NCBI GenBank assembly: GCA_000025185.1
Contig: CP001848.1
Span: 2,670,001 to 2,702,000 of the forward strand
Source: Pirellula staleyi DSM 6068
GTDB taxonomy: Bacteria > Planctomycetota > Planctomycetia > Pirellulales > Pirellulaceae
Length of the DNA stretch: 32,000 bases
Direction: 5' to 3'
Positions 3,519-31,465 of the stretch are shown here, piece by piece. The position numbers and the translations under genes were made by a program. The notes beneath the pieces were generated by a model, which was not told where the DNA came from, ran no database searches, and was given only the letters and a program-made list of their open reading frames with translations. Every line of letters starts with the position of its first letter. The first letter of the stretch is position 1.

Positions 3519-3666
3519 GATAGCTGAGTGAATTGAGTCACCCGGCTTCTGCCATCCTTAAGACCGCAGAAGTGGGGTGCGTCGATCGCACGCGACGACC
3601 ACATGCTCGTCGCCCGGCTAAGGTCCTGTCTCGTAAGCCACCACCCCTCCACTTCCCCTTGTCGCA

Positions 3667-4902
3667 ATGAGCAACGTTCTTCGACTTGCCATCGTCGACC
3701 CGAATGACACCTCTCGCAATGCGCTCAAAAGCATGCTGCTGGGGATGGATGTTGTTTGGCTAGAAGCGGAATGCTCGCGCTACGAGTTCTTCGCCGACGT
3801 CATTGGGCAGACCAAGCCCGACATCGGTGTGATTTCGATCGACAGCAACCCCGAGAAGGGGCTCAAGCTGATCGAACAGATCCACATCAGCGCTCCCGAC
3901 TGTGCGCTCCTGGTGGTGAGCAGCTCGTCCGACGGACAAACGATCCTGCGGGCGATGCGGGCCGGTGCCAAAGAGTTTCTCACCCAGCCAATTCGGGTCG
4001 AAGACCTGCTCCACGCCCTCGATCGCATCGGTAGCCAAAAATTTGGGGCCGGTGAAGGTCGCACCCGCAGCTGTCACGTCATTGCCGTCGCTGGTGCCAC
4101 TGGTGGTGTCGGAACGACGAGTCTCGCCGTCAATCTCGGCTGTGTGCTCGCTGCTGAACCTCGCAACAGCGTGGTGCTGGTCGACCTCGACCTGTCACTC
4201 GGTGATGCCGACGTGTTCCTCGACACCATTCCCGACTACACGCTGGTCGATGTCGCGCAGAACATCAGCCGACTCGACTTCACGCTGCTGAAGCGTTCGC
4301 TCACCAAGCACTCGTCGGGGCTCTATCTGCTGCCGCGACCCGTGCAATTGCAAGACACCGCACTCATCACGCCCGACGATCTCACCCGTGTGCTCGGTCT
4401 GCTGAAGGCCAGTTTCACGCACATGATCCTCGACTTGTCGAAGGGCTATACGCCCGCCGACTTCGTGGCGCTCAAGAGCGCGAAAGATATTCTGCTCGTC
4501 ACCCAGCTCGACCTGCCGTGCCTGCGTAACGTCGTGCGACTGATGATGTCGTTCGGCGAAACTGAAGGGCTCAAGGACAAGGTGAAGATTGTGGTGAATC
4601 GGGTCGGTCTCGACACCGGCTCGATCAGTGTGAAGAAGGCCCAGGAGACGATGGGTCGCGAGATCTACTGGCAGTTGCCCAACGATTACCGCACGATGGT
4701 GGAAGTTCGCAACAACGGTGTGCCGCTCATCGAGCAGGCCCCGCGAGCCAGCATCACGCAAGCGGTGGTGACTCTGGCCGAAGCGCTCGGCGCGGAAGAG
4801 AAAACCAAAGAGGCCGAACCAGCCGCCGCTGGCGCTGGCAAATCGGGTGGAGGCTGGCTCAGCTTCCTCTCCGGTAAAGGAAAGCCCAAAGGAAGCAAGT
4901 AG
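3667..4902 (+). CDS. cpaE: CpaE/TadZ-like pilus localisation protein: receiver-like N-domain plus MinD/ParA-type ATPase fold with degenerate Walker A
   Basis: The N-terminus is REC-like (LAIVDPND...PDIGVISID...LLVVSS...GAKEFLTQP). The MinD/ParA-like part is VIAVAGATGGVGTTSLAVNLG...VVLVDLDLSLGDADVFLD...ILLVTQLDLPCLRN. It follows cpaC, as in tad loci. Confidence 0.8.
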   Translation: MSNVLRLAIVDPNDTSRNALKSMLLGMDVVWLEAECSRYEFFADVIGQTKPDIGVISIDSNPEKGLKLIEQIHISAPDCALLVVSSSSDGQTILRAMRAGAKEFLTQPIRVEDLLHALDRIGSQKFGAGEGRTRSCHVIAVAGATGGVGTTSLAVNLGCVLAAEPRNSVVLVDLDLSLGDADVFLDTIPDYTLVDVAQNISRLDFTLLKRSLTKHSSGLYLLPRPVQLQDTALITPDDLTRVLGLLKASFTHMILDLSKGYTPADFVALKSAKDILLVTQLDLPCLRNVVRLMMSFGETEGLKDKVKIVVNRVGLDTGSISVKKAQETMGREIYWQLPNDYRTMVEVRNNGVPLIEQAPRASITQAVVTLAEALGAEEKTKEAEPAAAGAGKSGGGWLSFLSGKGKPKGSK

Positions 4903-7917: not shown

Positions 7918-9633
7918 TCAAACCCAGCGTTTTTTCAGCGACGATTCACTCGCTTCCTCGGCCTGCGCTTGCTTGGCCGACTTCTGCCCCTTGCTGGCGT
8001 TCACTTCAGAACCGGGGGAATAGTCGATCGTTTCGGCGATGGCTCGAGGAGAATTTTCGAGCGGTACACCCGACAGATTGGCCGGCGCTGGTGGAGTGAT
8101 GGGGCCCAGGCCCGAAATGTATTTGCGCCAGCTATCGAGCTGATCGCGCGTCAGGCTGTTCTCACGATTGATCTCGTGACTGAGCGCCCCTTCGGAACCT
8201 TCCACCTGCACGGTGACGGTGAGTCGACCATTTTCTTCATAGCGGAAGCGGACTTCGATGGGCGACTGCGCAGGAAGATTCGTCGGCAAGTTGCGAACCG
8301 AGCATTTGCCGAGCTGGCTGCAATCGTCGGGCGAGGTGCTTTCCCCTTCGACAATCTGCACCAGAATCGATTTCTGCGCTGCCCGCTGCGTCCGAAAAAC
8401 GCGCCGCGCGACAACCGGCAGCGGCGTGTTGCGAGGAATCAGAATGGCATTCCGCGAGCGTTTGGTTTTGGCATCGGTGGCGACGACGCCGAGGCTGTGC
8501 GAGTTGACGTTCCGAATGCGAAACGACGGGCTTTTTCCCTCGTGATGAGCCAGCAGTAGACCGGCGTGCAAAGCGGCACCATGCGCCACCGCTTCATCGG
8601 GCGAGACACTGCAATCGGGCTCTTTGCCCGAGAGTTCGCGGAGCATGTCGACCACCGCTGGCATGCGGCTCGAGCCACCCACCAGCAGCACCCGGTCGAT
8701 ATCGCTCCAGGCGAGTCCCGCCGCGCTCAAGGTTTGCCGCGTGGTGAATGAGGTCCGGACCAGCAAGTCCTGCGTGATCTCGTGGAACGTCTGCCGAGTC
8801 ATCTCGACCCGAATCGCTTTCCCGAGGTAATCGCAAGGAATCGTTACCTTCATGCGGGCCGAAAGTGTTCGTTTGGCTTCTTCGCATTCGCGCGAGAGGC
8901 GACCGAGTGAGTTGGGTTCTTCGCGCGGATCGATGTGGTGCTTCTTCAGGAACTCTTCCGCGACATAGTCGACCAGTCGGCTGTCCCAGTCTTTACCACC
9001 GAGCTGTACATCGCCGTCAGTCGCCAGGGCGTTGAAATTACGCCCGCCGATCTCCATCACCGTGACGTCGAACGTGCCGCCGCCGAGGTCGTAGACCAGG
9101 ATCTTTTTGCGGTCGGTCGTCGAAGCATCAGCCCGCATGAAGCCTTGCTGAAAGCCAAACGCGACAGCAGCGGCGGTTGGCTCGTTGATGATGTCCATCA
9201 CTTCGAAGCCGGCGATATAGCCAGCATCTTGCGTCGCTTTGCGGCGGACTTCGTCGAAGTAGGCCGGGACGGTGATTACCACCTTGTCGAGCTTGCCAAC
9301 CAGTTTCTCGGCATCTTTGCGAAGCTTATTGAGGACCCACGCTTCGAGCGCTTCGGGGGGATATTGCCGACCACCAATCGACTTGTGAAAGAAGCGGCTG
9401 CCGAGGTCGCGTTTGGAGCATTCGGCGACCTGCTCGGCATCGGTGGCGATCGCTTTGGCCGCTTCCTTGCCGACGACGACGTTCTCCCCTTCGAAGAAAA
9501 TCACGCTGGGGGTGATCTTGTCCCCTTCGGCGTTGATGAGCGTTTGTGGTCGCCCTAGATCATCGAGACTGGCGATCACCGAGAAAGTGGTCCCGAGATC
9601 GATCCCCACGGCTGGTGATCGTGAGCTTTTCAT
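7918..9633 (-). CDS. Hsp70 family protein (DnaK paralogue, non-canonical C-terminus)
   Basis: Motifs: AVGIDLGTTFSV, ITVPAYFDE.RRKATQDAG, ILVYDLGGGTFDVTVMEI, VLLVGGSSRMPAV, and a beta-sandwich substrate-binding domain (SLGVVATD...LIPRNTPLP...IVEGES). ATG at 9633 is preferred over GTG at 9651. The tail lacks the helical lid and EEVD. Confidence 0.9.
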   Translation of the reverse strand: MKSSRSPAVGIDLGTTFSVIASLDDLGRPQTLINAEGDKITPSVIFFEGENVVVGKEAAKAIATDAEQVAECSKRDLGSRFFHKSIGGRQYPPEALEAWVLNKLRKDAEKLVGKLDKVVITVPAYFDEVRRKATQDAGYIAGFEVMDIINEPTAAAVAFGFQQGFMRADASTTDRKKILVYDLGGGTFDVTVMEIGGRNFNALATDGDVQLGGKDWDSRLVDYVAEEFLKKHHIDPREEPNSLGRLSRECEEAKRTLSARMKVTIPCDYLGKAIRVEMTRQTFHEITQDLLVRTSFTTRQTLSAAGLAWSDIDRVLLVGGSSRMPAVVDMLRELSGKEPDCSVSPDEAVAHGAALHAGLLLAHHEGKSPSFRIRNVNSHSLGVVATDAKTKRSRNAILIPRNTPLPVVARRVFRTQRAAQKSILVQIVEGESTSPDDCSQLGKCSVRNLPTNLPAQSPIEVRFRYEENGRLTVTVQVEGSEGALSHEINRENSLTRDQLDSWRKYISGLGPITPPAPANLSGVPLENSPRAIAETIDYSPGSEVNASKGQKSAKQAQAEEASESSLKKRWV

Positions 9634-10360
9634 GGAGGCGGTTCTCGGCACGCGGGGTAAAACGGCGGGGCAGAATCTGCAATAGTCCCCATCCTAACTG
9701 GGGAGCGTGGGGGGGACAACAATTCCGACCCGTGCAGGCCCAGGGGAAGCGATTTTTACGGACATTGGGATCGTGCCGGTGGTGCGGCGAGCAAGCGACT
9801 CGGTGAGGAATCGGGGCGCGAATGGTCGATGATGTCGAAGCGACCAGCGCCGGTGCTCCCCGCACGCTGCTGGCCTGAAGAACTCCACGCCACTTGCTGG
9901 CAACCAACTCCCCCCACTGGTTTGGAGCAGCCCGATGTCGGTCGATCTTACGAATGTTGCCCTCGGCCTCGTTTTTCTGGCCGTTTGGGGAATCGTTGCG
10001 CAGATTTGCGCCAGCGGAAAACGTGTCGAAACACGTAATTAGTAGTCCGGCTATCGAGCAATGTCAGTGTCTTTGGGTGGCCCTGCTGGCTTGTCCAGCA
10101 GTGTGAATCGCAGCTGAGAATGACATTGATCGATAGACGAAATAGTAGGGCCGGTTCCACCGGCCAAGAATCGCAAGCTACCTCTGAACTGTGTTGCGCT
10201 GCGCTGAGCACAGCCACCTGTCCGGCGCATGACGTCTACGTGAGCTAGCAGCCTGCTAGTGGCTGCCATGGGGCGATTGATCTTTACCCAGCGCGTGACC
10301 CTTGCTACGCTCCCACCTCAACTAGGCGAAAAGTCGATCGCTGGTCGACTTTTAGACAGG

Positions 10361-14525: not shown

Positions 14526-14854
14526 CTGTGGATGTGGAAGGGCGCGTTCCCGGCCACAATCGGCGTGATGATGCTGTCTTCTGTCCCTCCCAGGATCCTC
14601 TCCTGACGGCTAGCTTCACGCTCGAACGCATGTTCTATCCCGCCTTGGTTGCAGAGTTTGCGAGCTTTTCCTCGTAGGCATGATTGTTCCCAGCGGACAA
14701 TTGTGGACTCGATTTCTCGTAACCAGCTGCTTGATGGCGACATAGTATGTGCTGAGAATTATGTCCTGAGGGATCTTGTTCTCACACTCAGCGCTTTAGC
14801 CTCGAACACAACCCGCCCGAATATCCCACCGAACGAAATACCTGGAGTCTTCCG

Positions 14855-16159
14855 ATGACCTGCAGTGGAAATCGCTTGAGCCGCCGCAACATGCTCACTG
14901 TCGGCGCAGTTGGTGGCCTTGGTCTTTCGCTGGCCAACTTCTTCGAGATGCGAAGTGCCCAAGCGGAAATCAAGAACTACGACTTCATTCAGGCCAAGGC
15001 CCAGAGTGTGATCCATATCTACCTGCCCGGTGGTATGGCCCATCAAGAGTCGTTCGATCCCAAGCCTTATTCGCCGATCGAATATCGCGGCGAACTCAAC
15101 CCGATCAAGACCAACACGGGCGATATCTTCAGCGAAACGCTCCCGAAGCTTTCGCAGCTGGCCGACAAGCTGGCGGTTATCCGCTCGATGACGCACGGTG
15201 AAGCTGCCCACGAACGTGGCACGCACAACATGTTCACCGGCTATCGCCCCAGCCCAGCTTTGACGTTCCCCAGCATGGGAAGCGTGGTGAGCCACGAATA
15301 TGGCCCTCGCAACAACTTGCCTCCTTACGTTTGCGTTCCTGGCGTCCCCAATGAATATGCCAGCAATGGCTATTTGAGTTCGTCCTACGCTCCGTTTAGC
15401 CTCGGCAGCGATCCAGCCAACGGTGGATTCAAGGTGCTCGACCTGAACCTGCCTGGCGACGTGAATGAAGCTCGCTTTGCTCGCCGCCGCTCGGCACTCG
15501 AAGCAGTGAACGACTACTTCGTGAAGAAGGACAAGTCCGACAACGTTGGTGCGATGAACACGTTCTACGATCGTGCTTACAGCCTGATCAGCTCGCCGCA
15601 AGCTCGCGAAGCGTTCAATATCGATGCCGAGCCAGCTGCTCTGCGTGATGAATACGGTCGCAACACCGCCGGTCAGCGGATGCTGATGGCCCGCCGGTTG
15701 GTGGCTGCTGGTGTTCGTTTTGTGACCCTCACCTATGGTGGTTGGGACATGCACGACAACATCACCGCTGGCATGAAGAACCAAATGCCATCGCTCGATC
15801 AAGGTTTGTCGGCTCTGATTTCGGATCTCGACCGTCAAGGTCTCCTCGCCAGCACCTTGGTGCTCGTGTCGAGCGAATTCGGTCGTACGCCAAAGATCAA
15901 CCAGACGGCTGGTCGCGATCACTGGCCTAAGGTGTTCAGCGTGATGATGGCTGGTGGTGGTATCAAGGGTGGCATGATCTACGGTGCCAGCAACAGCACC
16001 GCTTCGGAACCCGACAGCGACCCTGTTGGTCCAGAAGATCTGGCCACGACTGTATATCACCAGCTCGGCATTGTGGCTGACAAGGAACTGATGGCTCCCG
16101 GTGATCGCCCGATCGAAATCGTCGACGGTGGCAAGATCATCGAGCCACTCATCTCGTAA
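14855..16159 (+). CDS. DUF1501 domain protein (sulfatase/alkaline-phosphatase-like fold), TAT-exported
   Basis: GGAG sits 7 nt upstream of ATG 14855. Twin-arginine signal: SRRNMLTVGAVGGLGLSLANF. Family motifs: IHIYLPGGMAHQESFDPKP, IRSMTHGEAAHERG, TLTYGGWDMHDN, SSEFGRTP, GRDHWPKVFSVMMAGGGIKGG. Confidence 0.9.
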   Translation: MTCSGNRLSRRNMLTVGAVGGLGLSLANFFEMRSAQAEIKNYDFIQAKAQSVIHIYLPGGMAHQESFDPKPYSPIEYRGELNPIKTNTGDIFSETLPKLSQLADKLAVIRSMTHGEAAHERGTHNMFTGYRPSPALTFPSMGSVVSHEYGPRNNLPPYVCVPGVPNEYASNGYLSSSYAPFSLGSDPANGGFKVLDLNLPGDVNEARFARRRSALEAVNDYFVKKDKSDNVGAMNTFYDRAYSLISSPQAREAFNIDAEPAALRDEYGRNTAGQRMLMARRLVAAGVRFVTLTYGGWDMHDNITAGMKNQMPSLDQGLSALISDLDRQGLLASTLVLVSSEFGRTPKINQTAGRDHWPKVFSVMMAGGGIKGGMIYGASNSTASEPDSDPVGPEDLATTVYHQLGIVADKELMAPGDRPIEIVDGGKIIEPLIS

Positions 16160-16625
16160 GAGTGCATGCATCGATCGTTCTGCCAAGCGAATGCTCTTGA
16201 GCTGAGCTTGCTTGCGGAATAAATCGATTACGAATCGGATCGCTCTTGCTAGAGGCAGTAGAGCGGTCGGGGCTGGCCACGCTAGCCCGAAGTTCTCTCA
16301 CAGCGGTTGGCGGCCGAGCGCTACCAGCCGCTGTCTTCTCGAAGGATCGGGATGGAGCCGAAAAATGGCTCTTTAGCCTCGGAAAATGCTGCAGAAATTC
16401 AGCATTCTCGACTACACTAGATGTACTTCCTGTGCATGAGTTCCCCGTGCTCGGTGGTTTTGCTCCAAGAGCAAGGCGTTTTGAGCATCCCCGCCACGAA
16501 CTCCCACCCAACCTTCTGACCAACGTTCCGAAATCGAACCGGCGCGATTGTCGTAGCAAACCCTGCTGCGCCCCGCTGCTCGCTTTCGAAAGCCGCTTGA
16601 TCCGACTTCGGAGTCTGCTGCCAAC

Positions 16626-19124
16626 ATGAGCACCCCTCAACTTAAGTCGTTCGCGAATTCACTGATCTGCGGCCTAGCGTCGCTCGTGCTCGTGGCTTCC
16701 ACGCTGGTCTCGCCAGCGTCGGCTGTCCACCCGCAGCTGAGCAGCATCAGCCCGGTTGGTGTGCAGCGTGGCACCGAAGTCGAGGTGATCTTCAGCGGCA
16801 ACGAGTGCGATGAAGCGGTCGAGGTGATGTTCTATTCACCTGGCTTCACCGTGCAGTCGCTCGAGAAGAGTGGCGACAACCAAGCCAAGGCCAAAATCGC
16901 TGTAGCCGCAGATTGCCGCCTCGGAATTCACGCCCTGCGACTCCGATCTCCTTCGGGCATGTCGGGCATTAAGACCTTCACCGTCGGTGCCCTCGGCGAA
17001 ACCAAAGAAGTCGAACCCAATAACGATTTCGCTACACCTCAAGCGGTGAGCCTGAACACCACGGTGGCGGGCAGCGTCGGTAATGAAGATGTCGACTACT
17101 ACTCGGTCGACCTCCAAGAGGGGCAGCGACTGAGTGTCGAAATCGAAGCGCTGCGTCTCGGAAATTCTTACTTCGATCCCTACGTCGCGATTCTCAACGC
17201 CGAACGTTTTGAGCTGTCGCGCAGCGATGATGCTCCGCTGCTGAATCAAGATGCACTCTGCTCGATCGTCGCTCCCACTACTGGGAAGTACATCATCCAA
17301 GTTCGTGAAAGTGCTTATGGTGGCGGCTCTGCCTACCGCATGCACGTCGGTTCTTTCCCACGCCCCACCGCCGTGCTTCCTGCTGGTGGTAAGCCGGGCG
17401 AGAAGCTGCAAGTGAAGTGGCTCGGAGATGCCGGTGGCGAGTTCACCACCGAAGTGACCATTCCTGCAGGCGATGAAACTGGCCGCGGCGAACTCTTTGC
17501 CCAAGATGATCGCGGCATCGCTCCTTCCCCCAATCCAATTCGCGTGGTCGACCTGAATAACTACCTCGAAGCGGAACCCAATCACGAAATCGCCAATGCT
17601 TCAGCTGCTGCAGCACCGGGCGCGATGAATGGTGTGATCGGTGAACCAGGGGATGTCGACCTCTTTAAGTTCGAAGCCAAGCAAGGACAAGCATACGAAG
17701 TGCGTGTGTTTGCCCGCATGCCGATTCGTTCGCCACTCGATAGCGTGCTGCAAATCCTGAATGACAAAGGTCAATCGATCGCCAACAACGACGACTCCGG
17801 TGGACCCGACAGCTATTTGCGATTCAACGTTCCCAGCGATGGCATCTACTTCGTCTCGGTGCGCGATCACTTGAATTCGGGCGGACCGACCTATGTCTAT
17901 CGCGTCGAGCTTTCGCCCGTTCAGCCCGAGCTGATCTTTTCACTCCCCGAGCGTGAACGCTACGTCGCCACCACCCTCACTGTCGGTAAGGGAAATCGGA
18001 TGGCGGTGATGGTTTCGGCTCAGCGTCAAAATTTCGGTGGCGATATCACACTCGAAGCTCAGAATCTTCCACCAGGAATGAGCATTCAGCTTCCACCGTT
18101 CACCGGCAATCGCAACGAAGTGCCGGTCCTCTTCACCGCCGCTGCCGATGCTGCACCCGCTGGGGCTCTGGTTCCACTCACCGGAAAATCAACCGATCCC
18201 AACGTCAATGTGACTGGCAAGTTCCGTCAGCGCACGATGTTGATTCGTGGCAACAACAACAGCGATGTTTGGGGACACGACAGCGATCGCATGGCTGTCG
18301 TTCTCTCGGAAGAAATCCCGTTCAAACTCGATCTCGTACAGCCGAAAGCTCCGCTAGTTCGCAACGGTTCGATCGACCTGAAGGTGGTTGCGACACGTGC
18401 GGAAGGTTTCACCGGCGAGATTCGCGTGCAGTTGCTCTACAACCCACCCGGTGTGGCCTCGTCGAGCAATATCACGATTCCTGAAGGGCAAAACGAAGCT
18501 CTGATTCCACTCACTGCCAACGGTGGTGCCGCTATAGGATCTTGGCAAATCGTTGCACTCGGTCGCGCTCGCGATCCCGGGGCGATGCAAAATGATCAGC
18601 AGCGTGGTCGTCGTGGTGGTGGCAGCTTCGAAGTCGCCACCGGTTTCATCGACCTCAATATCACCGATCAGTTCTACAAGTTCACGTTCGATAAGTCGGC
18701 GGTAGAGCAAGGCAAAGAGTCCGACGTGCTGGTGAAGGTCGAGAAGCTGGCCGACTTTGCAGGCAACGCCAAGTGCGAACTCAAGGGACTTCCTGCCGGT
18801 GTGACGGTCGACGGTCCTGTCGAATTCAACAAAGACACCACCGAGATCCTCATCAAGGTGAAATCGGCGGCTGATGCTCGTCCAGGGAAGTACAACTCGC
18901 TGGTCTGCGTCACCACCTTCCCGGTCGAAGGGGAACTCGTAACCCACACGCTCGGGACCGGTGAAATTCGAGTCGATGCACCACTCCCACCGAAGCCTGC
19001 AGCGCCCATGGCGCAAGCGGCTCCGATGCCCATGCCAATGCCCGCCGCTGAAGCACCACCGATGAAGCGTTTATCGCGCCTCGAACAGCTTCGCCTCGAA
19101 AAAGAACAAGCGATGGGCAAGTAA
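16626..19124 (+). CDS. secreted protein with two pre-peptidase C-terminal (PPC) domains and Ig-like modules, no protease domain
   Basis: Signal peptide LASLVLVASTLVSPASA. PPC module 1 at about 17007-17345: EPNNDFATPQAV...GNEDVDYYSVDLQEGQRLSVEI. PPC module 2 at about 17571-17915: EPNHEIANAS...GEPGDVDLFKFEAKQGQAYEVRV...NNDDSGGPDSYL...GIYFVSVRD. Confidence 0.8.
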   Translation: MSTPQLKSFANSLICGLASLVLVASTLVSPASAVHPQLSSISPVGVQRGTEVEVIFSGNECDEAVEVMFYSPGFTVQSLEKSGDNQAKAKIAVAADCRLGIHALRLRSPSGMSGIKTFTVGALGETKEVEPNNDFATPQAVSLNTTVAGSVGNEDVDYYSVDLQEGQRLSVEIEALRLGNSYFDPYVAILNAERFELSRSDDAPLLNQDALCSIVAPTTGKYIIQVRESAYGGGSAYRMHVGSFPRPTAVLPAGGKPGEKLQVKWLGDAGGEFTTEVTIPAGDETGRGELFAQDDRGIAPSPNPIRVVDLNNYLEAEPNHEIANASAAAAPGAMNGVIGEPGDVDLFKFEAKQGQAYEVRVFARMPIRSPLDSVLQILNDKGQSIANNDDSGGPDSYLRFNVPSDGIYFVSVRDHLNSGGPTYVYRVELSPVQPELIFSLPERERYVATTLTVGKGNRMAVMVSAQRQNFGGDITLEAQNLPPGMSIQLPPFTGNRNEVPVLFTAAADAAPAGALVPLTGKSTDPNVNVTGKFRQRTMLIRGNNNSDVWGHDSDRMAVVLSEEIPFKLDLVQPKAPLVRNGSIDLKVVATRAEGFTGEIRVQLLYNPPGVASSSNITIPEGQNEALIPLTANGGAAIGSWQIVALGRARDPGAMQNDQQRGRRGGGSFEVATGFIDLNITDQFYKFTFDKSAVEQGKESDVLVKVEKLADFAGNAKCELKGLPAGVTVDGPVEFNKDTTEILIKVKSAADARPGKYNSLVCVTTFPVEGELVTHTLGTGEIRVDAPLPPKPAAPMAQAAPMPMPMPAAEAPPMKRLSRLEQLRLEKEQAMGK

Positions 19125-19248
19125 CCCAGCGTCGGTTCTGCCAATTTCCACCACTGCAAAATTTGTCGATACAGCCTGCTATACGCAAACTTCCACTCAC
19201 GTCACTGGATGATGTTTGGAAGTCACACTTGAGTCGGAGTCCGAAGAG

Positions 19249-21681
19249 ATGCTCGAGAGTTTTCGCCGCTTCGCTTTTGGTTCACTAGCGATCCTTGTCC
19301 TTGGGGCAAGTGTGGCTATTGCCGACACAACGATTGTCGATGTGCAGGTCTATCCACCCGATGTCCACCTGTCGACCAAGGTCGATTTGCAGCGGTTCAT
19401 CGTGGTGGCGACACGCAAGGATGGTGTGACACTCGATGTCACCGCCGCTGCTTCGGTCAAAGTGGTGGACCCCAATCTTTGCAAGCTCGACAAGAATGTC
19501 CTGACGCCCGTTGCCGATGGCCAAACGGCCCTCGAAGTCGAGTACCAAGGCTTCAAAGCTGCTTCCACCATCACGGTGAAGGATGCAGTGGTCGATCGCC
19601 CTGTAAGCTTCCAACTCGACATCATGCCCGTGCTGCTGCGAGCTGGCTGCAACACCGGCAGCTGCCACGGTGCTGCACGTGGTAAAGATGGTTTCCGTCT
19701 GTCGCTCTTCGGGTTCGATCCGCAGGGAGACTACTTCCGCATCACTCGCGAAATTGGTGCCCGCCGCATCAATCTTGCTTCCCCCAAAGATAGTTTGCTC
19801 ATCGAGAAGTCAATCGGCGCCGTGCCTCACACCGGTGGCAAGCGTTTTGCTGCAGACAGCGAGTACAACGCGACACTGCTCCGCTGGCTCGAAGCTGGTG
19901 CAGTGAACGATCCCGGTCCAACACCGGCAGTGCTGGGGGTCGACCTCTATCCCCCGTCGGCTGTACTCGAAGGTGAAGGAGCAACGCAGCAATTCATTGC
20001 TGTGGCTCGTTATGCCGATGGAACCGATCGCGATATCACGTCGCTCGTCAATTTCATGACGAACAACGACAACAGTGCTCCGATCAGCGTGGATGGTTTG
20101 GTGACAGCCGCTTCACGTGGCGAAGCGTTCATCATGGCTCGCTTCGAAACGCACACAGTGGGCAATCAAGTTCTCGTCCTGCCGAAGGACCTGCAGTACA
20201 CCGCTCCTGAAGTGACCGGCAACTACGTCGATCAACTTGTCGGCGACAAACTCCGCAAGGTTCGTTTGCTCCCCAGCGGACTCTGCACCGACGAGCAGTT
20301 CCTCCGTCGAGCAACGATCGATATCACCGGGAAATTGCCGACCGAAGAAGAGTATCACGCCTTCATGAACGACGCCGATCCAACCAAGCGTGAAAAGCTG
20401 GTCGATCGCTTGCTCGGTCAGAAAGAGTTCTCCGAAATCTGGGCCATGAAGTGGTCGGAACTCCTGATGATCAAGTCGACGAACCAAGTGAGCGTGAAGT
20501 CGGCGTTTCTCTACAGCAGCTGGCTCACCGACAAGATCGCCACGAACGTGCCGCTCGACAAGATGGTGCAAGAGCTGCTGAGTGCTTCGGGGGGAACGTT
20601 CAAAAACCCACCGACCAACTACTACCAAATCGAGCGCGACACCCTCAAGGTATCTGAAAACGTCGCCCAGGTTTTCATGGGCATTCGCACCCAGTGCGCC
20701 CAGTGTCACAACCATCCGTTCGATCGCTGGACGATGGACGACTACTACGGATTTGCTGCCTTCTTCTCGCAAATTGGCCGCAAGCAAGCGGAAGACGAAC
20801 GCGAGCAAATCGTGTTCAACAGTGGAGGCGGCGATGTGCGTCACCCAGTCGGCAATCGGGTGATGAAGCCTAAATTCCTCGGCGGAATCGAGCCAGAACT
20901 CAATGGGATGGATCGCCGTGAGGCTCTCGCCAAGTGGCTCACTTCCACCGACAACCCTTACTTTGCCACGAGTGTTGCTAACCGAGTTTGGTCGCACTTC
21001 TTCTGCAAGGGCATTGTCGAACCGATCGACGACATCCGCGTTAGCAATCCAGCGAGCAACCCTGAGTTGTTCAATGAACTGGGAAAAAAGCTCGTGGAAT
21101 ACAACTACGACTTCAAACGTTTGGTGCGTGATATTTGCACTTCGCAAACCTATCAGCGGTCGACCGAGCGAAACGAAAGCAACATGACCGACGAGCGGAA
21201 CTTCGCTCACGGTAACGTCCGGCGTATCCCTGCAGAAATGCTGCTCGACTGCATCTGCCAAGTGACCGACGCGCAGGACAAGTTCAATGGTTTGCCTCTC
21301 GGTTCGCGAGCAGTGCAAATCGCCAACGGTCAAACCAGCAACTACTTCCTCACCACCTTCGGACGCGCACCGCGTGATACCGTTTGTGCATGTGAAGCCA
21401 AGACCGAGCCCACCTTGTCGCAAGCCTTGCACATGCTCAATGGCAGCACGATTCAAGGCAAGATTGGGGCAGGGCAGGTGGTGAAGAAGTTGCTCGATGC
21501 AGGCAAGACGCCACCCGAAGTGATTGAAGCGTTGTACATTCGCGCCCTCAGCCGCAAGCCAACTGCAGAAGAGACCGAACGTCTCCTGGCAGTCGTGGGA
21601 CAAGCGGAGAACCCACAACTGGGGCTTGAAGACTGCTTCTGGGCGATCCTGAACTCGCGCGAGTTCCTGTTTAATCACTAG
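19249..21681 (+). CDS. Big_2 / DUF1549 / DUF1553 (PSCyt2-PSD1 type) protein
   Basis: ATG at 19249 gives the signal peptide MLESFRRFAFGSLAILVLGASVAIA. There are two Ig-like Big_2 modules. DUF1549 motifs: IMPVLLRAGCNTGSCHG, RRATIDITGKLPT, FSEIWAMKWSELL. DUF1553 motifs: GIRTQCAQCHNHPFDRWTMDDYYGFAAFF, NPYFATSVANRVWSHFF, LNSREFLFNH. Confidence 0.9.
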   Translation: MLESFRRFAFGSLAILVLGASVAIADTTIVDVQVYPPDVHLSTKVDLQRFIVVATRKDGVTLDVTAAASVKVVDPNLCKLDKNVLTPVADGQTALEVEYQGFKAASTITVKDAVVDRPVSFQLDIMPVLLRAGCNTGSCHGAARGKDGFRLSLFGFDPQGDYFRITREIGARRINLASPKDSLLIEKSIGAVPHTGGKRFAADSEYNATLLRWLEAGAVNDPGPTPAVLGVDLYPPSAVLEGEGATQQFIAVARYADGTDRDITSLVNFMTNNDNSAPISVDGLVTAASRGEAFIMARFETHTVGNQVLVLPKDLQYTAPEVTGNYVDQLVGDKLRKVRLLPSGLCTDEQFLRRATIDITGKLPTEEEYHAFMNDADPTKREKLVDRLLGQKEFSEIWAMKWSELLMIKSTNQVSVKSAFLYSSWLTDKIATNVPLDKMVQELLSASGGTFKNPPTNYYQIERDTLKVSENVAQVFMGIRTQCAQCHNHPFDRWTMDDYYGFAAFFSQIGRKQAEDEREQIVFNSGGGDVRHPVGNRVMKPKFLGGIEPELNGMDRREALAKWLTSTDNPYFATSVANRVWSHFFCKGIVEPIDDIRVSNPASNPELFNELGKKLVEYNYDFKRLVRDICTSQTYQRSTERNESNMTDERNFAHGNVRRIPAEMLLDCICQVTDAQDKFNGLPLGSRAVQIANGQTSNYFLTTFGRAPRDTVCACEAKTEPTLSQALHMLNGSTIQGKIGAGQVVKKLLDAGKTPPEVIEALYIRALSRKPTAEETERLLAVVGQAENPQLGLEDCFWAILNSREFLFNH

Positions 21682-21857
21682 TCGCCAGCAGGCAGCTGCG
21701 GCGAGGAGATTCTGTTGAATCTCCTCGCAATTTTGGGCCGAGTGTTGAGAAGAGTAAGTAAACTATCGTGAAAGAGTTTTTGCTGAGTTCCTTAGGAAGT
21801 GCCAAGAATCTTCTGAAGAGTTCAGCACGACAGTCTCTCGCGGGGAGTGGTTCGGAT

Positions 21858-24398
21858 ATGCGTTACCTGGCATTGTGGTCGGTGGTTGTGGGCTCGCTGT
21901 GGGCCGGAAGTATGGCGTCTGCTCAAGAGGCAAAGCCTGCCGATCCAGCGACCCCCAAAGTAACCTACGACGATCACGTCCGTCCGATTCTTCGCGAGCA
22001 TTGCTTCTCGTGCCATAACCAAGGACAAGCCAAGGGCGGTTTGATCCTCGATTCGTATGCCAAAACGATGGAAGGTGGCAGTAGCGGCGAAGTCGTGCTG
22101 GCCGGGGATCTCGAAAGCAGTCGGCTGTGGGCTCTGGTGAGCCACAACGAAGAGCCGATCATGCCCCCCAATCAAGACAAAATTGCGCAGGCAAAGCTCG
22201 ACATCCTGAGCAAGTGGATCGAGCAAGGGGCACTTGAAAACAGCGGATCGAAAGCGGTTATCAAAAAGAAGAACAACCTAGCTCTCGCGCCAACATCGAG
22301 CACCGGTAAGCCCGAAGGGCCTGCTGCGATGCCCGAGTCGGTGTTCAAGCAACCGGTGATGTTCACCCCCCGTGCTGGCGCAGTAACCGCGATCGCCACG
22401 AGCCCCTGGGCTCCGCTGGCTGCTGTGGCGGGTCAAAAGCAGGTTGCTCTTTACAACACCGATTCGCTCGAACTGCTCGGCGTGATTCCGTTCCCCGAAG
22501 GGATTCCTCACGTGCTCCGCTTCAGCCGCAACGGAAGTGTGCTGCTGATCGGTGGTGGTCGTGGTGGACACTCGGGGTGCGTGGCACTCCACGATGTGAA
22601 GACCGGCAAGCGCCTCGCGAAGATCGGTGATGAACTCGATGCGGTTCTCGCCGCTGATATCAACCTCGATCAGTCGATGGTCGCCCTCGGCGGACCTTTG
22701 CGAATGGTTCGCATCTACTCGACAGCTACGGGCGAACTGCTTCACGAAATCAAAAAACACACCGATTGGGTCTACAGCCTCGAGTTCAGCCCCGATGGTG
22801 TGCTGCTCGCCACGGGCGATCGAAGCGGTGGCCTGTTTGTGTGGGAAGCTGACACAGCGCGTGAATACCTCAGCCTACGCGGCCACACGGGTGGCGTTTG
22901 CGACGTAGCTTGGCGTGGCGACTCGAACGTGCTCGCCTCGAGCGGCGAAGATGGAACCGTCAAGCTTTGGGAAATGAACGAAGGTAACGCCATCAAGAGC
23001 TGGCCTGCCCATGGTGGCGGAGCGTTCTGCGTTTCGTTCACACACGACGGCCGAATCGCTTCGGCTGGTCGCGATAACACAGTGAAGTCGTGGAGCGGTG
23101 ATGGAAATGCCCTGAAGAACTTTCCGGCGTTCAGCGAATCGGCTTTGCAAACGGTCTTCACCCACGATGGCAAACGCGTGATCGGTGGCGACTGGCTCGG
23201 CAACGTTCGTGTTTGGGACACCGAGGAAACTAAAGAAATCGGTACCCTTGCAGCCAACCCGCCAACGCTGGTGATGCAAGTGGAAGCGGCCAAGGGAGCG
23301 ATTGTTCCGGCCGAACAAGCGGCTGCCAATGCCGCTGCGGAACTGGCTGTCATTACGAAGCAAGCCACCGATAAAGATGTCGTCGTCAAAGCCGCCGCTG
23401 ACAAGTACAACGCTACCGTCGCTGCAATGCAGCAACTGGCTGCCGATCAAGTGGCTAAGACCAAGGAACTAGAAACATCGACCGCCACCGCTAAAACCAC
23501 GGCCGATGCCAAGGTAGCTGCCGAAGCTGCCGCCAAACTTGCTACCGACGAAAAGGCTGCCGCCGACAAACTTGCCGGTGAACGTGACGCTGCCGCGAAG
23601 GCTGCTGCCGAGGCCGCCGCCAACGACAAGAAAACAGCCGACACACTCGCCGCCGAACAAAAGCCAGAAGCTGCTGCTGCGGCGGAGAAAGCTGCTGCAG
23701 CCGCAACCGCCGCTGCCATGGCCGACCAGCAGAAGGCCGAGGCCGCCGTAGCCGCTGCGATGAAGGGTGAAGCCCTCACCAAGGCCGCCAATACACTCGC
23801 CGCGGCTGCCAAAGCTGCCACCGATGCCCAAGCTGTTGTGGATGCCACGAAAAAGAAGCTCGAAGAAATCGCGGCGGCGATGAAAACCACCGAAGCGGAA
23901 ATCGCCGCCACTAAAGCCGAAGCTGATAAGCAGGCCAAAGAGCGAGCCGATCTCGAACCGCAAATCTCCGCTAAGAAGGTGGCGGCTGATGCCGCTGCTG
24001 CTGCCGTGAATGCCACCAAGGAAAAGCTCGCTAAGATCGAGGCCGAACTGGCAGAGTTCAATGCGATGGCTGGCAAACTGCAGGCGGAAGCCGACAAGGC
24101 TGCCGCAGAAGTAGCCGCCAGCACCACAGCCGCCACACAAACCGAAGCTGAACGCGTCGCTGCTGCCACCGAGATGGCCAACAAAGCAGCCGCTGCCAAG
24201 GCAATTGCCGACAAACTGGCCGCTCTGCAGGCCGAGTATGCGAAAGCAGAAGCCGAGCAAAAGAAGGCTCAGGAGATGCTCGCCGCAAAGGAAGCCGCTG
24301 CCAAGGCGATGCAAGAGAAGGTGGCCGCCGCCCAAGCTGCTGCTGATGAAGCGGCTGCCCAGCGTAAGGCATTTGCCGAGGCTTACGAGGTGAAGTAA
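21858..24398 (+). CDS. PSCyt1 (planctomycete cytochrome-c-like) domain, WD40 beta-propeller and Ala/Lys/Glu-rich helical tail protein
   Basis: ATG at 21858 gives the signal peptide MRYLALWSVVVGSLWAGSMASA. PSCyt1: VRPILREHCFSCHN...KGGLILDSY. Seven WD40-like blades by eye (e.g. HTDWVYSLEFSPDGVLLATGDRSGGLFVWE, GEDGTVKLWE). The final ~370 aa are low-complexity A/K/E. Confidence 0.9.
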   Translation: MRYLALWSVVVGSLWAGSMASAQEAKPADPATPKVTYDDHVRPILREHCFSCHNQGQAKGGLILDSYAKTMEGGSSGEVVLAGDLESSRLWALVSHNEEPIMPPNQDKIAQAKLDILSKWIEQGALENSGSKAVIKKKNNLALAPTSSTGKPEGPAAMPESVFKQPVMFTPRAGAVTAIATSPWAPLAAVAGQKQVALYNTDSLELLGVIPFPEGIPHVLRFSRNGSVLLIGGGRGGHSGCVALHDVKTGKRLAKIGDELDAVLAADINLDQSMVALGGPLRMVRIYSTATGELLHEIKKHTDWVYSLEFSPDGVLLATGDRSGGLFVWEADTAREYLSLRGHTGGVCDVAWRGDSNVLASSGEDGTVKLWEMNEGNAIKSWPAHGGGAFCVSFTHDGRIASAGRDNTVKSWSGDGNALKNFPAFSESALQTVFTHDGKRVIGGDWLGNVRVWDTEETKEIGTLAANPPTLVMQVEAAKGAIVPAEQAAANAAAELAVITKQATDKDVVVKAAADKYNATVAAMQQLAADQVAKTKELETSTATAKTTADAKVAAEAAAKLATDEKAAADKLAGERDAAAKAAAEAAANDKKTADTLAAEQKPEAAAAAEKAAAAATAAAMADQQKAEAAVAAAMKGEALTKAANTLAAAAKAATDAQAVVDATKKKLEEIAAAMKTTEAEIAATKAEADKQAKERADLEPQISAKKVAADAAAAAVNATKEKLAKIEAELAEFNAMAGKLQAEADKAAAEVAASTTAATQTEAERVAAATEMANKAAAAKAIADKLAALQAEYAKAEAEQKKAQEMLAAKEAAAKAMQEKVAAAQAAADEAAAQRKAFAEAYEVK

Positions 24399-24452: not shown

Positions 24453-24489
24453 AAGGTGAGCTTCACTCCGGTTGAGGCTCACCTTTTTT
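24453..24489 (+). terminator. intrinsic terminator after the PSCyt1-WD40 gene
   Basis: A 13-bp stem (24453-24465 pairs with 24473-24485, including one G-U pair) with a 7-nt loop. It runs into a T6 tract (24484-24489), 55 nt after the stop codon. Confidence 0.65.
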
Positions 24490-24542
24490 CGTGCGCTCAG
24501 CGGCTCTATGGGGCTCGACTAACCGATTGACACGAGCGCACG

Positions 24543-24756: not shown

Positions 24757-24981
24757 CTATTCGCGTGGGCGAATGGCACCGATCAAACCGCTGTAGTCGA
24801 CCCGGTCTTCGTCGTGCCAGAGTGGCAGGCCGAGTTCAACGCGGCTGCGGAGGATTTCGATCTTCTCGGGCGATCCAGCTGGAGCAGCGGTGGGCTCGAA
24901 GCTTTCAGGAGCATCTGGGTAGAAGTCCTCGTCGTGACCGTACTTCAGGATCGCCTCGAACACATTACGTACTTTGTCCAT
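24757..24981 (-). CDS. small acidic hypothetical protein (74 aa)
   Basis: ATG (24981-24979) with GGAG 8 nt upstream on the minus strand. Codon usage is native-like and the gene has its own terminator. No family is recognised. Confidence 0.6.
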   Translation of the reverse strand: MDKVRNVFEAILKYGHDEDFYPDAPESFEPTAAPAGSPEKIEILRSRVELGLPLWHDEDRVDYSGLIGAIRPRE

Positions 24982-28116: not shown

Positions 28117-29115
28117 CTAGGCGTTCGTGGCCCCATCGTTATACAGGGAAAGCATGCCGGTGGCACGGCGGCAGATCATCTCCCGCAGGTCTGTCGGAGA
28201 AATCACCTTCACCTGATCGCCATAACCCATCACCCACCAGCTGATTTCGCTCAGTCCCGAAACCTGCACCCGGTAGTCGAGCCAGCCATCTTCAGTAAAC
28301 GAAATCTGCTGAGTCCGGTGCCAAATCACTTCGGCGACGTTCTTCGCCACACGCGGGCTAAAGCGCAAATGGACTTCGTGGTCGGGACCCGGTTCGGGAA
28401 TCAGCCGCCAGGCATTTCCCAGGTACCGCTCGAGGGAAAACGACTTAGGAACTTCGTACGGAGTATCCAGCATGGCAAGGCTGTCGATACGTCCCACGTT
28501 GAACGTCCGGACCTCGCGATGCAAACTCGAGCGGCCAATCACGTACCAGCTGTGTTGATTGAACAGCAGTTGGTAGGGCTCGAGCTTGGTCTCGATATGC
28601 TCTTTCTCGTGCAAACTTCGGTACGCAATCCGGACGGCATGCCGCTGGCCAATCGCCTCCACCAGTTCGGCGTAGGTTCCCTGCTGACCCTCCAGGGGAT
28701 TGGTCGCATCGAGCTTGATCGAAAGTGCGCCCGACAGATTCCGAAGATACTCGAGCAATCGCCGTGGCAGGCTTGTTTCGAGTTTCGCAGCAGCTGAACG
28801 AGCGGCGGCAAAGAGAGGGATCTTATGCTGATCCCCGAGTTCGTGGCACAGCACGAGCATGGCAATGGCTTCGTCGGCCGTGAAGTTCGTCGGGGGGAGA
28901 AAAAACTGCCCCGGAATGCGATAGGTCTTCCGCTCTTCGTCGTAGACCAGCGGAACTTCCGCTTCTCGTAAGTCTTCGAGATAGCGGAAAATGGTGCGAG
29001 TACTGACTTCACAAGCACGAGCCAGGGCCGGGGCGTTATAGCCTTGCGACCCTTGGAGCAGGCCGATCAGTTTAACGATCCGCCTGATTCGTGTAAGGAC
29101 AGTCGACTCACTCAC
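28117..29115 (-). CDS. WYL-domain transcriptional regulator (HTH - WYL - C-terminal extension, YafY/PafBC-like architecture)
   Basis: N-terminal HTH: RIRRIVKLIGLLQGSQGYNAPALARACEVSTRTIFRYLEDLREAEVPL. WYL-type region: VRIAYRSL...EPYQLLFNQHSWYVIGRSSLHREVRTFNVGRI. The GTG start at 29115-29113 overlaps the upstream gene's stop. Confidence 0.8.
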   Translation of the reverse strand: MSESTVLTRIRRIVKLIGLLQGSQGYNAPALARACEVSTRTIFRYLEDLREAEVPLVYDEERKTYRIPGQFFLPPTNFTADEAIAMLVLCHELGDQHKIPLFAAARSAAAKLETSLPRRLLEYLRNLSGALSIKLDATNPLEGQQGTYAELVEAIGQRHAVRIAYRSLHEKEHIETKLEPYQLLFNQHSWYVIGRSSLHREVRTFNVGRIDSLAMLDTPYEVPKSFSLERYLGNAWRLIPEPGPDHEVHLRFSPRVAKNVAEVIWHRTQQISFTEDGWLDYRVQVSGLSEISWWVMGYGDQVKVISPTDLREMICRRATGMLSLYNDGATNA

Positions 29116-31465
29116 TGGTGCCTTCGTCGTACGAAGCGGGACGAACTTGCGAATCGCGACGCGAACTTGTCGAGTTGCCCCGCAGTGGGTTGCTCGTGTT
29201 GCTCGAAGCGACCGACGACGAGCGTGGAGCAGCTGTTGCCGGACCAGTTGTAATCGGAGTTGGTCGAGCAGCCACCTGCGACTCGCGACGAGGTGCCATC
29301 ACCGCTTCGCTCGAGACCACTTTGGCCTTAGGCATCGTGCTGCGAGCTTCGGGCATCATCGGTTCCACTTCAGGGGTGGGAACTTCTTCGCTCTTGGGCA
29401 TGGCTGGCGTCGGTTCTGGAGTGGGGAGTTCTTCGTAGTACTCTTCGCCAGGAACTTGCAGCTGCATTCCTTCGATCGAAGGAGCCATCGATTCACCTGG
29501 TCCACGGCTGATCACGCTAGGACGGGTCCAGCCGTAGTCCATGTACAGGGCGGCATCACGTTCACGAGCTCGGCCAGTCGCATCCCAGTAGGCTTTGTCC
29601 GGCCAAGGGCCTTCTTCGAATGCAACGCCATTGTAATCCATGATCGAACCCTTGCGAGTGTGCACGTCGGCAATCGACTTGTTGTATTCGCACACAGCCG
29701 ACCAGAACGCTGCTTGACCTTGAGCACGACGACGTTGAGCTTCGAGCACCAGATCGAGCGGAGCTTTACCGCCACGATAGAGGGCTTCGACCGATTCGAC
29801 TTCTTTCTGCGAAGCGGCCCAGCGATTGGCGTTAGTTTGAGCCAATTGATAGTTCGCGTCGAGGTTACGAATAGCGCGGGTCAAACCGTGCGAAACGTCG
29901 AGTTCCATATCTTCGAGCAACGCTTGTTCGCGAGCCAGACGGAGCTGAGCATGGCGGACACCGGCGAGTTCACGACGGAAGCCGACAGGCATTGCATAGC
30001 TGAAGAACAAACCCCATTCCTGATAGTTGCCTTCGGTCAGTTCGTCCATGGCGGTCGAACCGACAGCTGGATAGTTCAGACCGTTGCGATCGGCGTTGAT
30101 CAGATCGTCGCCCAGACCAACCCATCGGTACATGGCACCGACGTCGAGCTGTGGCAGGAGCTGATTGCGAGCCCAGATCACTTCCAGTTCGCGTTGCTTG
30201 ATTTCCCAACGTTTGCCGATGAGTTCTGGTCGGCGAGCAATCGACTCGACGAGGATTTCGTTCCAGTCGAAGTTCACCTGAGCCAGGGTGGGCTCATCCT
30301 TCGGACGAATCAGGCGACCATCGGTGGCCGACAGACCCATCAGCAGGCGGAGTTCGTTTTCGTTGTTGTAGAGTTCGCGGAGAGCAGCTTCGACTTGGGC
30401 GCGGAAAGCAAAGTATTGTTCGCGAGCCTGTGCCTCTTGCTGAACAGGTTCGGTACCAGCTTGCCATTTGTCGTAGATGATGCGCCAGGTGACGAGCGAG
30501 CTATCACGACCAACCTTCGCGGTTTCGAGGTTGCGATAAGCGAGGTAGAGATCCCAGTAGCGGGTTTCGATGTTGTTGAGCATGTCTTGCAAGTTGGCCT
30601 GCAAGCTGCGGATTTCGATGTCGGTGCCGATACGAGCGATCGTCACAGGCATGCGATTGATCAGAGCACCACGACCACGGAGCAGCGGGTGACGAGCTTC
30701 GACTTCGAAGGCGGTGGTCCAAGTGCTTTCGAGTGGCTGAAAGCCGAGAGGACGGGTGAAGCCGCGGCTGTAGTTCGTGACGTTACGGAAAGCGAAGGTG
30801 GTGCCTTCAGCGGTCCGCTTCGAAACTTGCGAGGTGAGACCACCCGAGGTGGTTTCGACCTGTGGCAAACCGAACGCTTGTCCGGGGGGGATGTTTTGGG
30901 GGCGATCGCTGTGGCTGGCGATGGCACCGTTGCCGTCGTTGCCGACCACGCTCACCTGGGCATCGAATTCCGACAGAGCAGCTTCCACACCTTGGCGAAC
31001 GCCAGCGACACCCGCGTCGGTGCTTGGTCCGCTCGCCGAGTTGCCAGGGTTGCTTTCGGTGATGGCTGGGTCGTAGGTCGAAGCAAAAGCTCGGCTCACG
31101 CTGTTGAGTGTCAGCGAGCCTTCACCCGTGCCAGCGACTAGCTGACCACTCTGCAAGCGGACAGCTGTGCCGCCGCGAATGATTTTGCTGTTGGCCAGCG
31201 AGATTGAAACCACTTCCTCGAGCGAGAGTTCCCAAATTTCTTTGAACTCGGGATTGCTCAAGGTGAGCGGCTTCTCGGCGTGCTGCACTTCCGCCAGAGG
31301 CATCTGATCGACGTCAGGATGCTCCGTTTGGGTCGCCTTGTCGAGGAAGTGCGACATGTCGCCATCCTCGTGCAGGTAGAACGGTTGCGTTGGATGGCAA
31401 CCTGTCGCCCAAATGAGGAGACCGACTAAGAAGCAACGCAGGATGTGTGTTAACGGCCGGCTCAT
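29108..31465 (-). CDS. TolC-family outer-membrane efflux/secretion protein (lipoprotein-type signal) with disordered C-terminal tail
   Basis: N-terminus: CFLVGLLIWATGC (lipobox-like). There are two OEP-type repeats (LSLEEVVSISLANS..., IETRYWDLYLAYRNLE, ARRPELIGKRWEIKQRELEV, LDLVLEAQRRRAQGQAAFWSAVCEYNKSIADV). The last ~135 aa are Pro/Ser/Glu-rich. Confidence 0.85.
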   Translation of the reverse strand: MSRPLTHILRCFLVGLLIWATGCHPTQPFYLHEDGDMSHFLDKATQTEHPDVDQMPLAEVQHAEKPLTLSNPEFKEIWELSLEEVVSISLANSKIIRGGTAVRLQSGQLVAGTGEGSLTLNSVSRAFASTYDPAITESNPGNSASGPSTDAGVAGVRQGVEAALSEFDAQVSVVGNDGNGAIASHSDRPQNIPPGQAFGLPQVETTSGGLTSQVSKRTAEGTTFAFRNVTNYSRGFTRPLGFQPLESTWTTAFEVEARHPLLRGRGALINRMPVTIARIGTDIEIRSLQANLQDMLNNIETRYWDLYLAYRNLETAKVGRDSSLVTWRIIYDKWQAGTEPVQQEAQAREQYFAFRAQVEAALRELYNNENELRLLMGLSATDGRLIRPKDEPTLAQVNFDWNEILVESIARRPELIGKRWEIKQRELEVIWARNQLLPQLDVGAMYRWVGLGDDLINADRNGLNYPAVGSTAMDELTEGNYQEWGLFFSYAMPVGFRRELAGVRHAQLRLAREQALLEDMELDVSHGLTRAIRNLDANYQLAQTNANRWAASQKEVESVEALYRGGKAPLDLVLEAQRRRAQGQAAFWSAVCEYNKSIADVHTRKGSIMDYNGVAFEEGPWPDKAYWDATGRARERDAALYMDYGWTRPSVISRGPGESMAPSIEGMQLQVPGEEYYEELPTPEPTPAMPKSEEVPTPEVEPMMPEARSTMPKAKVVSSEAVMAPRRESQVAARPTPITTGPATAAPRSSSVASSNTSNPLRGNSTSSRRDSQVRPASYDEGTSE

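Follow-up and report, generated by a model that had tools for sequence, protein, structure and literature searches.

Few protein families of unknown function have expanded as much as DUF1501, PSCyt and PSD1 in Planctomycetota and Verrucomicrobiota, important degraders of polymers in marine environments and in soil, and the question raised by the locus described here is what such proteins do. The locus lies in a 32,000-nucleotide stretch of Pirellula staleyi DSM 6068 (contig CP001848.1, positions 2,670,001 to 2,702,000), referred to below as the window, and all coordinates are window positions unless another locus is named. It comprises four consecutive plus-strand genes at 14855-24398, which we call g1 to g4, and which an initial annotation had put forward as a fresh candidate for an envelope machine. 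We observed that the locus is real and tightly conserved, but that it is a rediscovery, its four-gene architecture having been published in 2012. Because the domain architecture agrees gene for gene, and g1 is 100% identical to a protein of P. staleyi DSM 6068, identification of 14855-24398 as the P. staleyi copy of the four-gene DUF1501 module that Kamneva et al. (2012, Genome Biol Evol; PMC3542564) described from the Planctomycetes-Verrucomicrobia-Chlamydiae (PVC) group is well supported.

Kamneva et al. surveyed the neighbours of all DUF1501 genes across PVC genomes, with Pirellula among the DUF1501-bearing taxa that they list, and described as "the most complex gene clusters" a set of four genes that encode, respectively, a DUF1501 protein with a twin-arginine signal, a PPC protein with a signal peptide, a PSCyt1/Big_2/PSCyt2/PSD1 protein and a PSCyt1/WD40 protein (PMC3542564). 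They concluded that these genes form a conserved module, probably a membrane-targeted electron-transport machinery, of unknown function, and they linked it to intracellular membranes (PMC3542564). Later papers (PMC4960237, PMC5587647, PMC5615132) merely cite the module or remark on the expansion of the families. The P. staleyi genes correspond to these four in architecture and in order, with a twin-arginine translocation (TAT) signal on the first protein and signal peptides on the others; they differ in that g3 gave no match to the Pfam PSCyt1 model, also in relaxed scans of sub-regions, and carries a conserved CX4CH variant in its place. The cell-plan model of planctomycetes that is based on intracellular membranes has been abandoned since 2012. 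To the earlier description we add a structure model and a residue pattern for g1, the Ala-rich stalk of g4, and conserved terminal motifs.

The extent of conservation was examined in a collection of one genome per species, in which 487 stretches contained a relative of g2; the g2 family has more than 2300 homologues and marks the module more specifically than the other families do, and we found no g2 relatives on plasmids. Among the best 80 loci, all from Pirellulales and with g2 identities of 48-62%, 54 have all four genes with order and strand unchanged, and where the contig leaves room, g1 was found in 57 of 57 loci, g3 in 60 of 61 and g4 in 50 of 51. Flanking genes were common to at most 12 loci. 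More distant copies were reached by walking out from DUF1501 representatives, 2 of which (P0247 and P0245) lie in other gene contexts, and one of which (P0241) is on a contig too short for neighbours. We observed a clean four-gene copy in the Gemmataceae clade (L086), a copy with the order kept in Frigoriglobus tundricola (CP053452.2, Gemmatales; L087), with identities of 65% for g1, 43% for g2, 58% for g3 and 53% for g4, and the same order on a frameshift-ridden metagenomic contig (L083), with identities of 51, 27-30, 33 and 32%, respectively. For Verrucomicrobia, the module order rests on PMC3542564. In the aggregate, adjacency of the four genes is a strong rule, but one with exceptions. The proposal in the initial annotation that they are one conserved unit is thus upheld in Pirellulales, in Gemmatales and in a distant metagenomic relative, and the possibility it had raised, that synteny is lost outside close relatives, was not borne out, because the order persists in distant relatives while the flanking genes change.

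The sequences are also strongly constrained. When the same pairs of genomes were compared, identities were 43-50% for the replication gene holB, as against 70-85% for g1, 66-80% for g3, 59-68% for the propeller part of g4 and 48-61% for g2; by this measure, conservation of g1 and g3 is far above that of holB. When 1.8 billion representative proteins were searched, full-length orthologues of g1 stood at 64% identity or higher in Pirellulales, and full-length paralogues at or below 45-46%; in the more distant modules, the g1 orthologues are about 51-65% identical. The DUF1501 proteins of the module share the signature PGG[MLQ][AS]HQES[FW]DPKP together with MTHGEAAHERGTHxMFTGYRPSPA, kept even in L083, whereas most paralogues have GGPSHxDTxDPKP instead. 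This signature and the gap between orthologues and paralogues fit one core function better than many substrate-specific variants. Among paralogous loci, L081 (3-2819) has the order PSD1 protein, DUF1501 protein (45% identical to g1), WD40 protein, and WD40 partners are therefore not confined to the four-gene module.

Table. Features of the window, the four genes of the module and their parts first, other features after them
Feature	Positions	Strand	Description
g1	14855-16159	+	TAT-signal DUF1501 protein, 434 aa; Pfam DUF1501 E 3e-115, full-length
g1, twin-arginine motif	14879-14896	+	SRRNML, aa 9-14
g1-g2 intergenic gap	16160-16625		466 bp, longest among 70 orthologous loci
g2	16626-19124	+	Sec-signal modular protein, 832 aa
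g2, PPC1	~17001-17351	+	EPNN at aa 130; preceded by N module
g2, PPC2	~17574-17921	+	EPNH at aa 317; preceded by middle module
g2, three related modules	~17922-18995	+	Followed by Pro-rich linker and terminal helix
g3	19249-21681	+	Sec-signal protein, 810 aa from ATG 19249; longest open reading frame (ORF) from TTG 19216
g3, CX4CH segment	19648-19668	+	CNTGSCH; preceded by Big_2-like module
g3, Big_2	~19933-20136	+	
g3, PSCyt2	~20227-20775	+	Pfam E 1.7e-47
g3, CAQCH	20695-20709	+	Within PSCyt2
g3, PSD1	~20914-21594	+	Pfam E 6e-45
g4	21858-24398	+	Sec-signal protein, 846 aa from ATG 21858; longest ORF from GTG 21768
g4, CFSCH	22002-22016	+	Within PSCyt1 (Pfam E 7e-15); MPP downstream
g4, WD40 propeller	~22395-23276	+	Seven blades
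g4, tail	23298-24395	+	Ala/Lys/Glu-rich, 366 aa
Intrinsic terminator	24453-24495	+	55 nt after g4 stop; 13-pair stem (24453-24485) and T-run
ORF downstream of g4	24757-24981	-	74 aa, convergent to g4; no Pfam family
Tad/Flp pilus genes	365-4902	+	RcpC/CpaB, secretin, TadZ-like response-regulator ATPase
Hsp70-family protein	7918-9651	-	577 aa; followed by 202-aa ORF without family match
ORF over g1	14759-16186	-	475 aa, antisense
ORF over g3	20113-21678	-	521 aa, antisense
WYL/WCX regulator and OEP protein	28117-31465	-	Regulator adjoins 785-aa OEP outer-membrane efflux protein

As can be seen in the table, the initial annotation read the individual genes correctly: they are co-directional and exported, a DUF1501 protein with a twin-arginine signal being followed by a protein with 2 PPC modules that begin with EPN(N/H) and no protease domain, a protein with Big_2-like modules and the motifs C-X4-CH and CAQCH at the exact positions given, and a protein with PSCyt1, CFSCH, seven WD40-like blades and a tail that had been put at about 370 aa. 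Its further statement that DUF1501 resembles the sulfatase/alkaline-phosphatase fold agrees with the predicted structure of g1, which we describe next.

Comparison of DUF1501 with the Protein Data Bank (PDB) at the level of sequences and profiles yielded weak sulfatase and LtaS matches and no close relative of solved structure. An AlphaFold2 model computed from an alignment of 111 diverse family representatives reached a mean predicted local distance difference test score (pLDDT) of 92.9 and a predicted template-modelling score of 0.89; an alignment of 32 orthologues that were all close (at least 80% identity) gave a useless model, with a pLDDT of 46. A Foldseek search of the PDB with the better model gave 189 matches at E<=1e-3, and the 50 of these that were listed are all enzymes of the alkaline-phosphatase superfamily, including sulfatases, sulfamidase, LtaS/LtaP, phosphonate monoester hydrolase and alkaline phosphatase. 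By its predicted structure, then, g1 is a remote member of the alkaline-phosphatase/sulfatase superfamily, with a core fold like that of type I sulfatases, LtaS/EptA-type transferases and other enzymes of this group. The twin arginines of its signal are conserved in more than 90% of the DUF1501 family.

The residue pattern of g1 is that of its own family. Its sequence contains all of the family-invariant residues (G59, R110, H119, R281, D298, H300, R354, H356, G367 and G377) and keeps all of those that are near-invariant (D68, K70, E341, R344 and D355). The EFGR motif of the family, SEFGRT in g1, aligns in a profile alignment to the sulfatase metal-ligand motif GDHGR, and the conserved E341, D298/H300 and D355/H356 are candidate metal ligands. 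There is no match in g1 to Cys/Ser-x-Pro-x-Arg, and its two Cys are at positions 3 and 160; g1 is therefore not a formylglycine sulfatase. His119 begins a helix whose end, nine and ten residues further on, is M-F-T-G, and the sulfatase signature, which begins at the nucleophile Cys, has its end in the same register. From this register and from the secondary structure of the model, the invariant His119 appears to occupy the nucleophile position that is Ser, Thr or formylglycine in relatives. In addition to this apparent His, g1 differs from the alkaline-phosphatase superfamily in having no Asp pair after the first strand. We also considered whether g1 is a dead enzyme, as Ala62 is Ser in most of the family, and rejected this because all family-invariant residues are kept and the signature of the subfamily is strongly conserved.

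The PPC stretches of g2 (Pfam E 4e-19) are clear repeats of each other (hhalign E 8e-16), and the 2 modules that precede them show a weak mutual resemblance. The three modules of the C-terminal part are mutually related, with E values from 4e-6 (first against third) to 8e-4, and are followed by a Pro-rich linker and an invariant terminal helix, KRLSRLEQLRLEKEQ. No peptidase family was found in g2 by Pfam, and the database name "subtilase-type serine protease" was accordingly rejected. The non-PPC parts had no match in the PDB by sequence or profile; a marginal Ig match was seen at the C-terminus in a relaxed Pfam scan of sub-regions, and a weak match to Qn_am_d_aIII (E 4e-4) fell under the Pfam cut-off.

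In g3, the Big_2 similarity was weak in Pfam and clear against solved Big_2 domains (E 6e-23). The CX4CH segment is weakly PSCyt1-like (hhalign E 1e-3, probability 20%), PSCyt2 and PSD1 had no match in the PDB by sequence or profile, and DUF1800 was absent from g3 in relaxed Pfam scans of sub-regions. The sequences GCNTGSCHGA, VPHTGGK and QCAQCHNHP were kept in nearly all of 76 orthologues. In g4, the WD40 match extends over about 294 aa, which is compatible with seven blades, and matches in the PDB went down to 3e-71. The CxxCH of g4 and the downstream MPP are conserved in its orthologues, and CxxCH...MPP is the pattern of a class I cytochrome c with His and Met as haem ligands. The tail of g4 is 40% Ala, 12% Lys and 10% Glu; its length across orthologues ranges from 15 to 561 aa with an Ala content of 22-50%, except that the two shortest tails (15-16 aa) have 12-13% Ala. 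At the end of g4, a motif AFAEAY(G/E)xK is conserved in many species. We infer that the variable spacer of g4 with its fixed end peptide, and the linker of g2 with its fixed end helix, resemble tethered docking elements.

The ATG starts assigned to g3 and g4 yield clean Sec-type signal peptides. Hydrophobicity sufficient for a membrane helix was confined to g2 and g3, in both cases to the N-terminal signal region, and g1 to g4 have no lipobox, barrel signal or membrane segment beyond the signal regions. Because of this, of the 2 locations named in the initial annotation, periplasmic is the simpler reading, and the outer surface lacks a supporting signal. The one convincing intrinsic terminator lies after g4, where the annotation had placed it: its stem has a folding energy of -27.4 kcal/mol (z -5.4; none of 200 shuffles reached this stability) and this is the sole site with a long stem. 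The total count of terminator-like sites equals that expected from shuffles, and therefore only this site stands out. The 466-bp gap between g1 and g2 showed no blastn or tblastx conservation in related loci. Downstream of g4, the 74-aa ORF recurs with 66-77% identity in 16 of 45 orthologous loci (the window counted), always 80-490 bp beyond g4, with the pattern NVFEAILKYGHDEDF...APAGS...GLPLWH..DR.DYSGL.GA.RPR.

Our proposal, held tentatively and at rather less than an even chance, is that g1 to g4 form a soluble periplasmic complex around the DUF1501 and PSCyt2/PSD1 pair. Its chemistry would be as follows. The g1 protein would fold and take up metal in the cytoplasm, leave through the TAT pathway, and act on an anionic (phospho- or sulfo-ester) group, probably of a glycan or envelope polymer; the three invariant Arg and the Glu/Asp/His cluster of g1 would point to such a group. 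The g3 protein, which has two putative motifs of the haem-c type and a pair of Ig-like Big_2 modules, would keep the substrate in place for g1 or present it to that enzyme. The g2 protein may be a rod of about seven beta-rich modules, the two PPC domains included, and g4 a cytochrome-c domain and WD40 hub on an Ala-rich stalk of variable length, and both could serve as scaffolds, each docking by the short conserved motif at its C-terminus. A glycan as substrate is hinted at by the carbohydrate-binding domains in partner proteins of other module types (PMC3542564, PMC5615132), by DUF1800-DUF1501 pairs inside proteobacterial chitin-synthase operons (PMC5122149), and by the fusion of one DUF1501 paralogue to a Laminin_G_3 domain. 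Since the module sequences are so strongly conserved, a housekeeping role in maintenance of the envelope or periplasm is more likely than use of one nutrient. Spelled out to its full extent, the module might be a periplasmic housekeeping machine of planctomycetes and their relatives in which an enzyme of the alkaline-phosphatase fold, with a His-centred active site of a kind not described before, is coupled to three c-type haems, for example for redox-gated modification or turnover of envelope glycan in the enlarged periplasm, with the WD40/Ala-rich-stalk protein as a spacer whose length is specific to the species; in so specific a form we think it improbable.

Several observations weigh against the proposed complex, and some of these favour other explanations. 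The nearest structures to the g1 model are remote, with a TM-score of about 0.4 and identities of 9-14%, so that the chemistry of g1 could differ entirely from theirs. The placement of His119 comes from motif register and secondary structure, and when the DUF1501 profile was aligned by hhalign to an approximate arylsulfatase A sequence, the C-terminal half aligned convincingly and the nucleophile region did not; the assignment of His119 therefore stays provisional. In the literature searched we found no experimental study of the module's function. The weakest point is that three conserved haem motifs are hard to square with a plain hydrolase. They would be explained directly if the module were a redox system, as Kamneva et al. 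(2012) proposed, in which the Ig-like, PPC and WD40 modules bind a substrate that gives electrons to, or receives them from, a short periplasmic relay made up of the haem-c motifs in g3 and g4, and in which g1 is a redox enzyme with a cofactor, or an enzyme under redox control, and not a simple hydrolase. CX4CH, CAQCHNHP and CFSCH...MPP are indeed kept in essentially all orthologues, and the Cys-X-X-Cys-His...Met-Pro of g4 is that of textbook class I cytochromes c; TAT export, moreover, suits enzymes that bear cofactors (PMC3542564). The combination of an exported c-type haem domain, Ig-like domains and a seven-blade propeller also recalls periplasmic quinohaemoprotein dehydrogenases such as the amine dehydrogenases. 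Yet this last resemblance is one of parts, with the sub-threshold Qn_am_d_aIII match of g2 as the sole link in sequence, and the module has no quinone-cofactor subunit or maturase. No quinone, flavin, Fe-S or molybdopterin family was found in g1 to g4 with Pfam or NCBIfam, the WD40 repeats of g4 are of the scaffold type (WDR5-like) and not those of a cofactor-binding propeller, and haem binding by g3 and g4 is itself putative, being read from motifs. By fold and conserved residues, g1 belongs with a superfamily of hydrolases and transferases, and none of the matches listed is a known redox enzyme. We therefore regard a redox module as possible, but doubtful.

It can also be asked whether the proteins serve nutrient capture, the module being a substrate-specific variant of the PSCyt/PSD1 and DUF1501 pairs that binds and processes one class of external polymer, for instance a sulfated polysaccharide, in the manner of a polysaccharide utilization locus. 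Such pairs belong to greatly expanded families; sulfatases lie in the vicinity of the partner proteins, whose carbohydrate-binding modules vary (PMC3542564, PMC5615132, 10.1101/2022.05.18.492586); the lectin-like domain of the fused paralogue mentioned above, and the sulfatase genes near the module in L083 and in Frigoriglobus, point in the same direction. This explanation is nevertheless unlikely: the module is far more conserved than holB of the same genomes, its architecture is fixed across two orders, and no glycoside hydrolase, transporter or regulator is a conserved neighbour, all of which are traits of a core function and not of a niche-specific catabolic locus. Finally, the four genes could be mere neighbours, transcribed independently and kept in order by descent alone, with no joint function. 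Their gaps, calculated from the ATG starts as 466, 124 and 176 bp, are long for an operon, and the medians across the 70 orthologous loci (160, 93 and 91 bp) leave room for separate promoters. In Frigoriglobus, a toxin-antitoxin-like pair (an 81-aa Unstab_antitox protein and a 49-aa ORF, at 10531-10922 of L087) is inserted between g2 and g3, which makes a single obligatory transcript doubtful. Two loci are without adjacent g3 or g4: L061, the sole departure among those of the 80 Pirellulales loci that are long enough to judge, has neither, and L085 (GCA_036704275.1), a distant copy of the module, has g1-g2-g3 and no adjacent g4. Planctomycete genomes are, besides, known for weak operon structure (PMC2754498). 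Against this, the genes retain their order and strand where the flanking genes all change, and order persists down to 27-33% identity in g2 to g4; in addition, DUF1501 and PSCyt2/PSD1 occur as partners in every module type (PMC3542564). That the genes have nothing to do with each other is, by these criteria, most improbable. As a separate observation, two family-2 glycosyltransferase genes follow g3 in L085 (16731-18821), at the place expected for g4.

The module can be set beside 2 simpler arrangements. The two-gene pairs of PSCyt1/PSCyt2/PSD1 and DUF1501 in Planctomycetota and Verrucomicrobiota contain the same core pair of families, with haem motifs in the partner and often a TAT signal on the DUF1501 member (PMC3542564). 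They differ from the module in that a genome has dozens of them, their binding modules vary, and the PSD1 gene usually comes first, as in L081; the module has DUF1501 first, two extra proteins, a DUF1501 signature of its own and much higher conservation. The DUF1800 and DUF1501 pairs of Proteobacteria (PMC5122149) likewise join a TAT-signal DUF1501 protein to a large partner and are found in glycan-synthesis operons, but the partner is of another family, and haem motifs, PPC proteins and WD40 proteins are lacking.

The remainder of the window contains several features that we note for completeness. The Tad/Flp pilus genes have no synteny with the module elsewhere, and the WYL/WCX regulator is common to only 4 related loci. 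The Hsp70-family protein and the 202-aa ORF that follows it may be a non-canonical DnaK-like pair. The long ORFs antisense to g1 and g3 are most likely shadow ORFs, as expected in DNA of 57% G+C, and not genes. An NCBIfam scan gave no informative family, and no Rfam family was found in the window.

The interest of the locus lies in the long-standing question of DUF1501 and PSCyt function, rather than in its discovery. Within the DUF1501/PSCyt/PSD1 group, no other member is as conserved or as elaborate as the four-gene module, which is therefore the best entry point to the function of the whole group. The question is now sharper, in that the module is under constraint above that of an essential replication gene and its enzyme subunit has a confident model, in which His119, Glu341, Asp298/His300, Asp355/His356 and Arg110/281/354 are singled out as residues of g1, and in that the short terminal motifs of g2 and g4 could mediate assembly of a complex.

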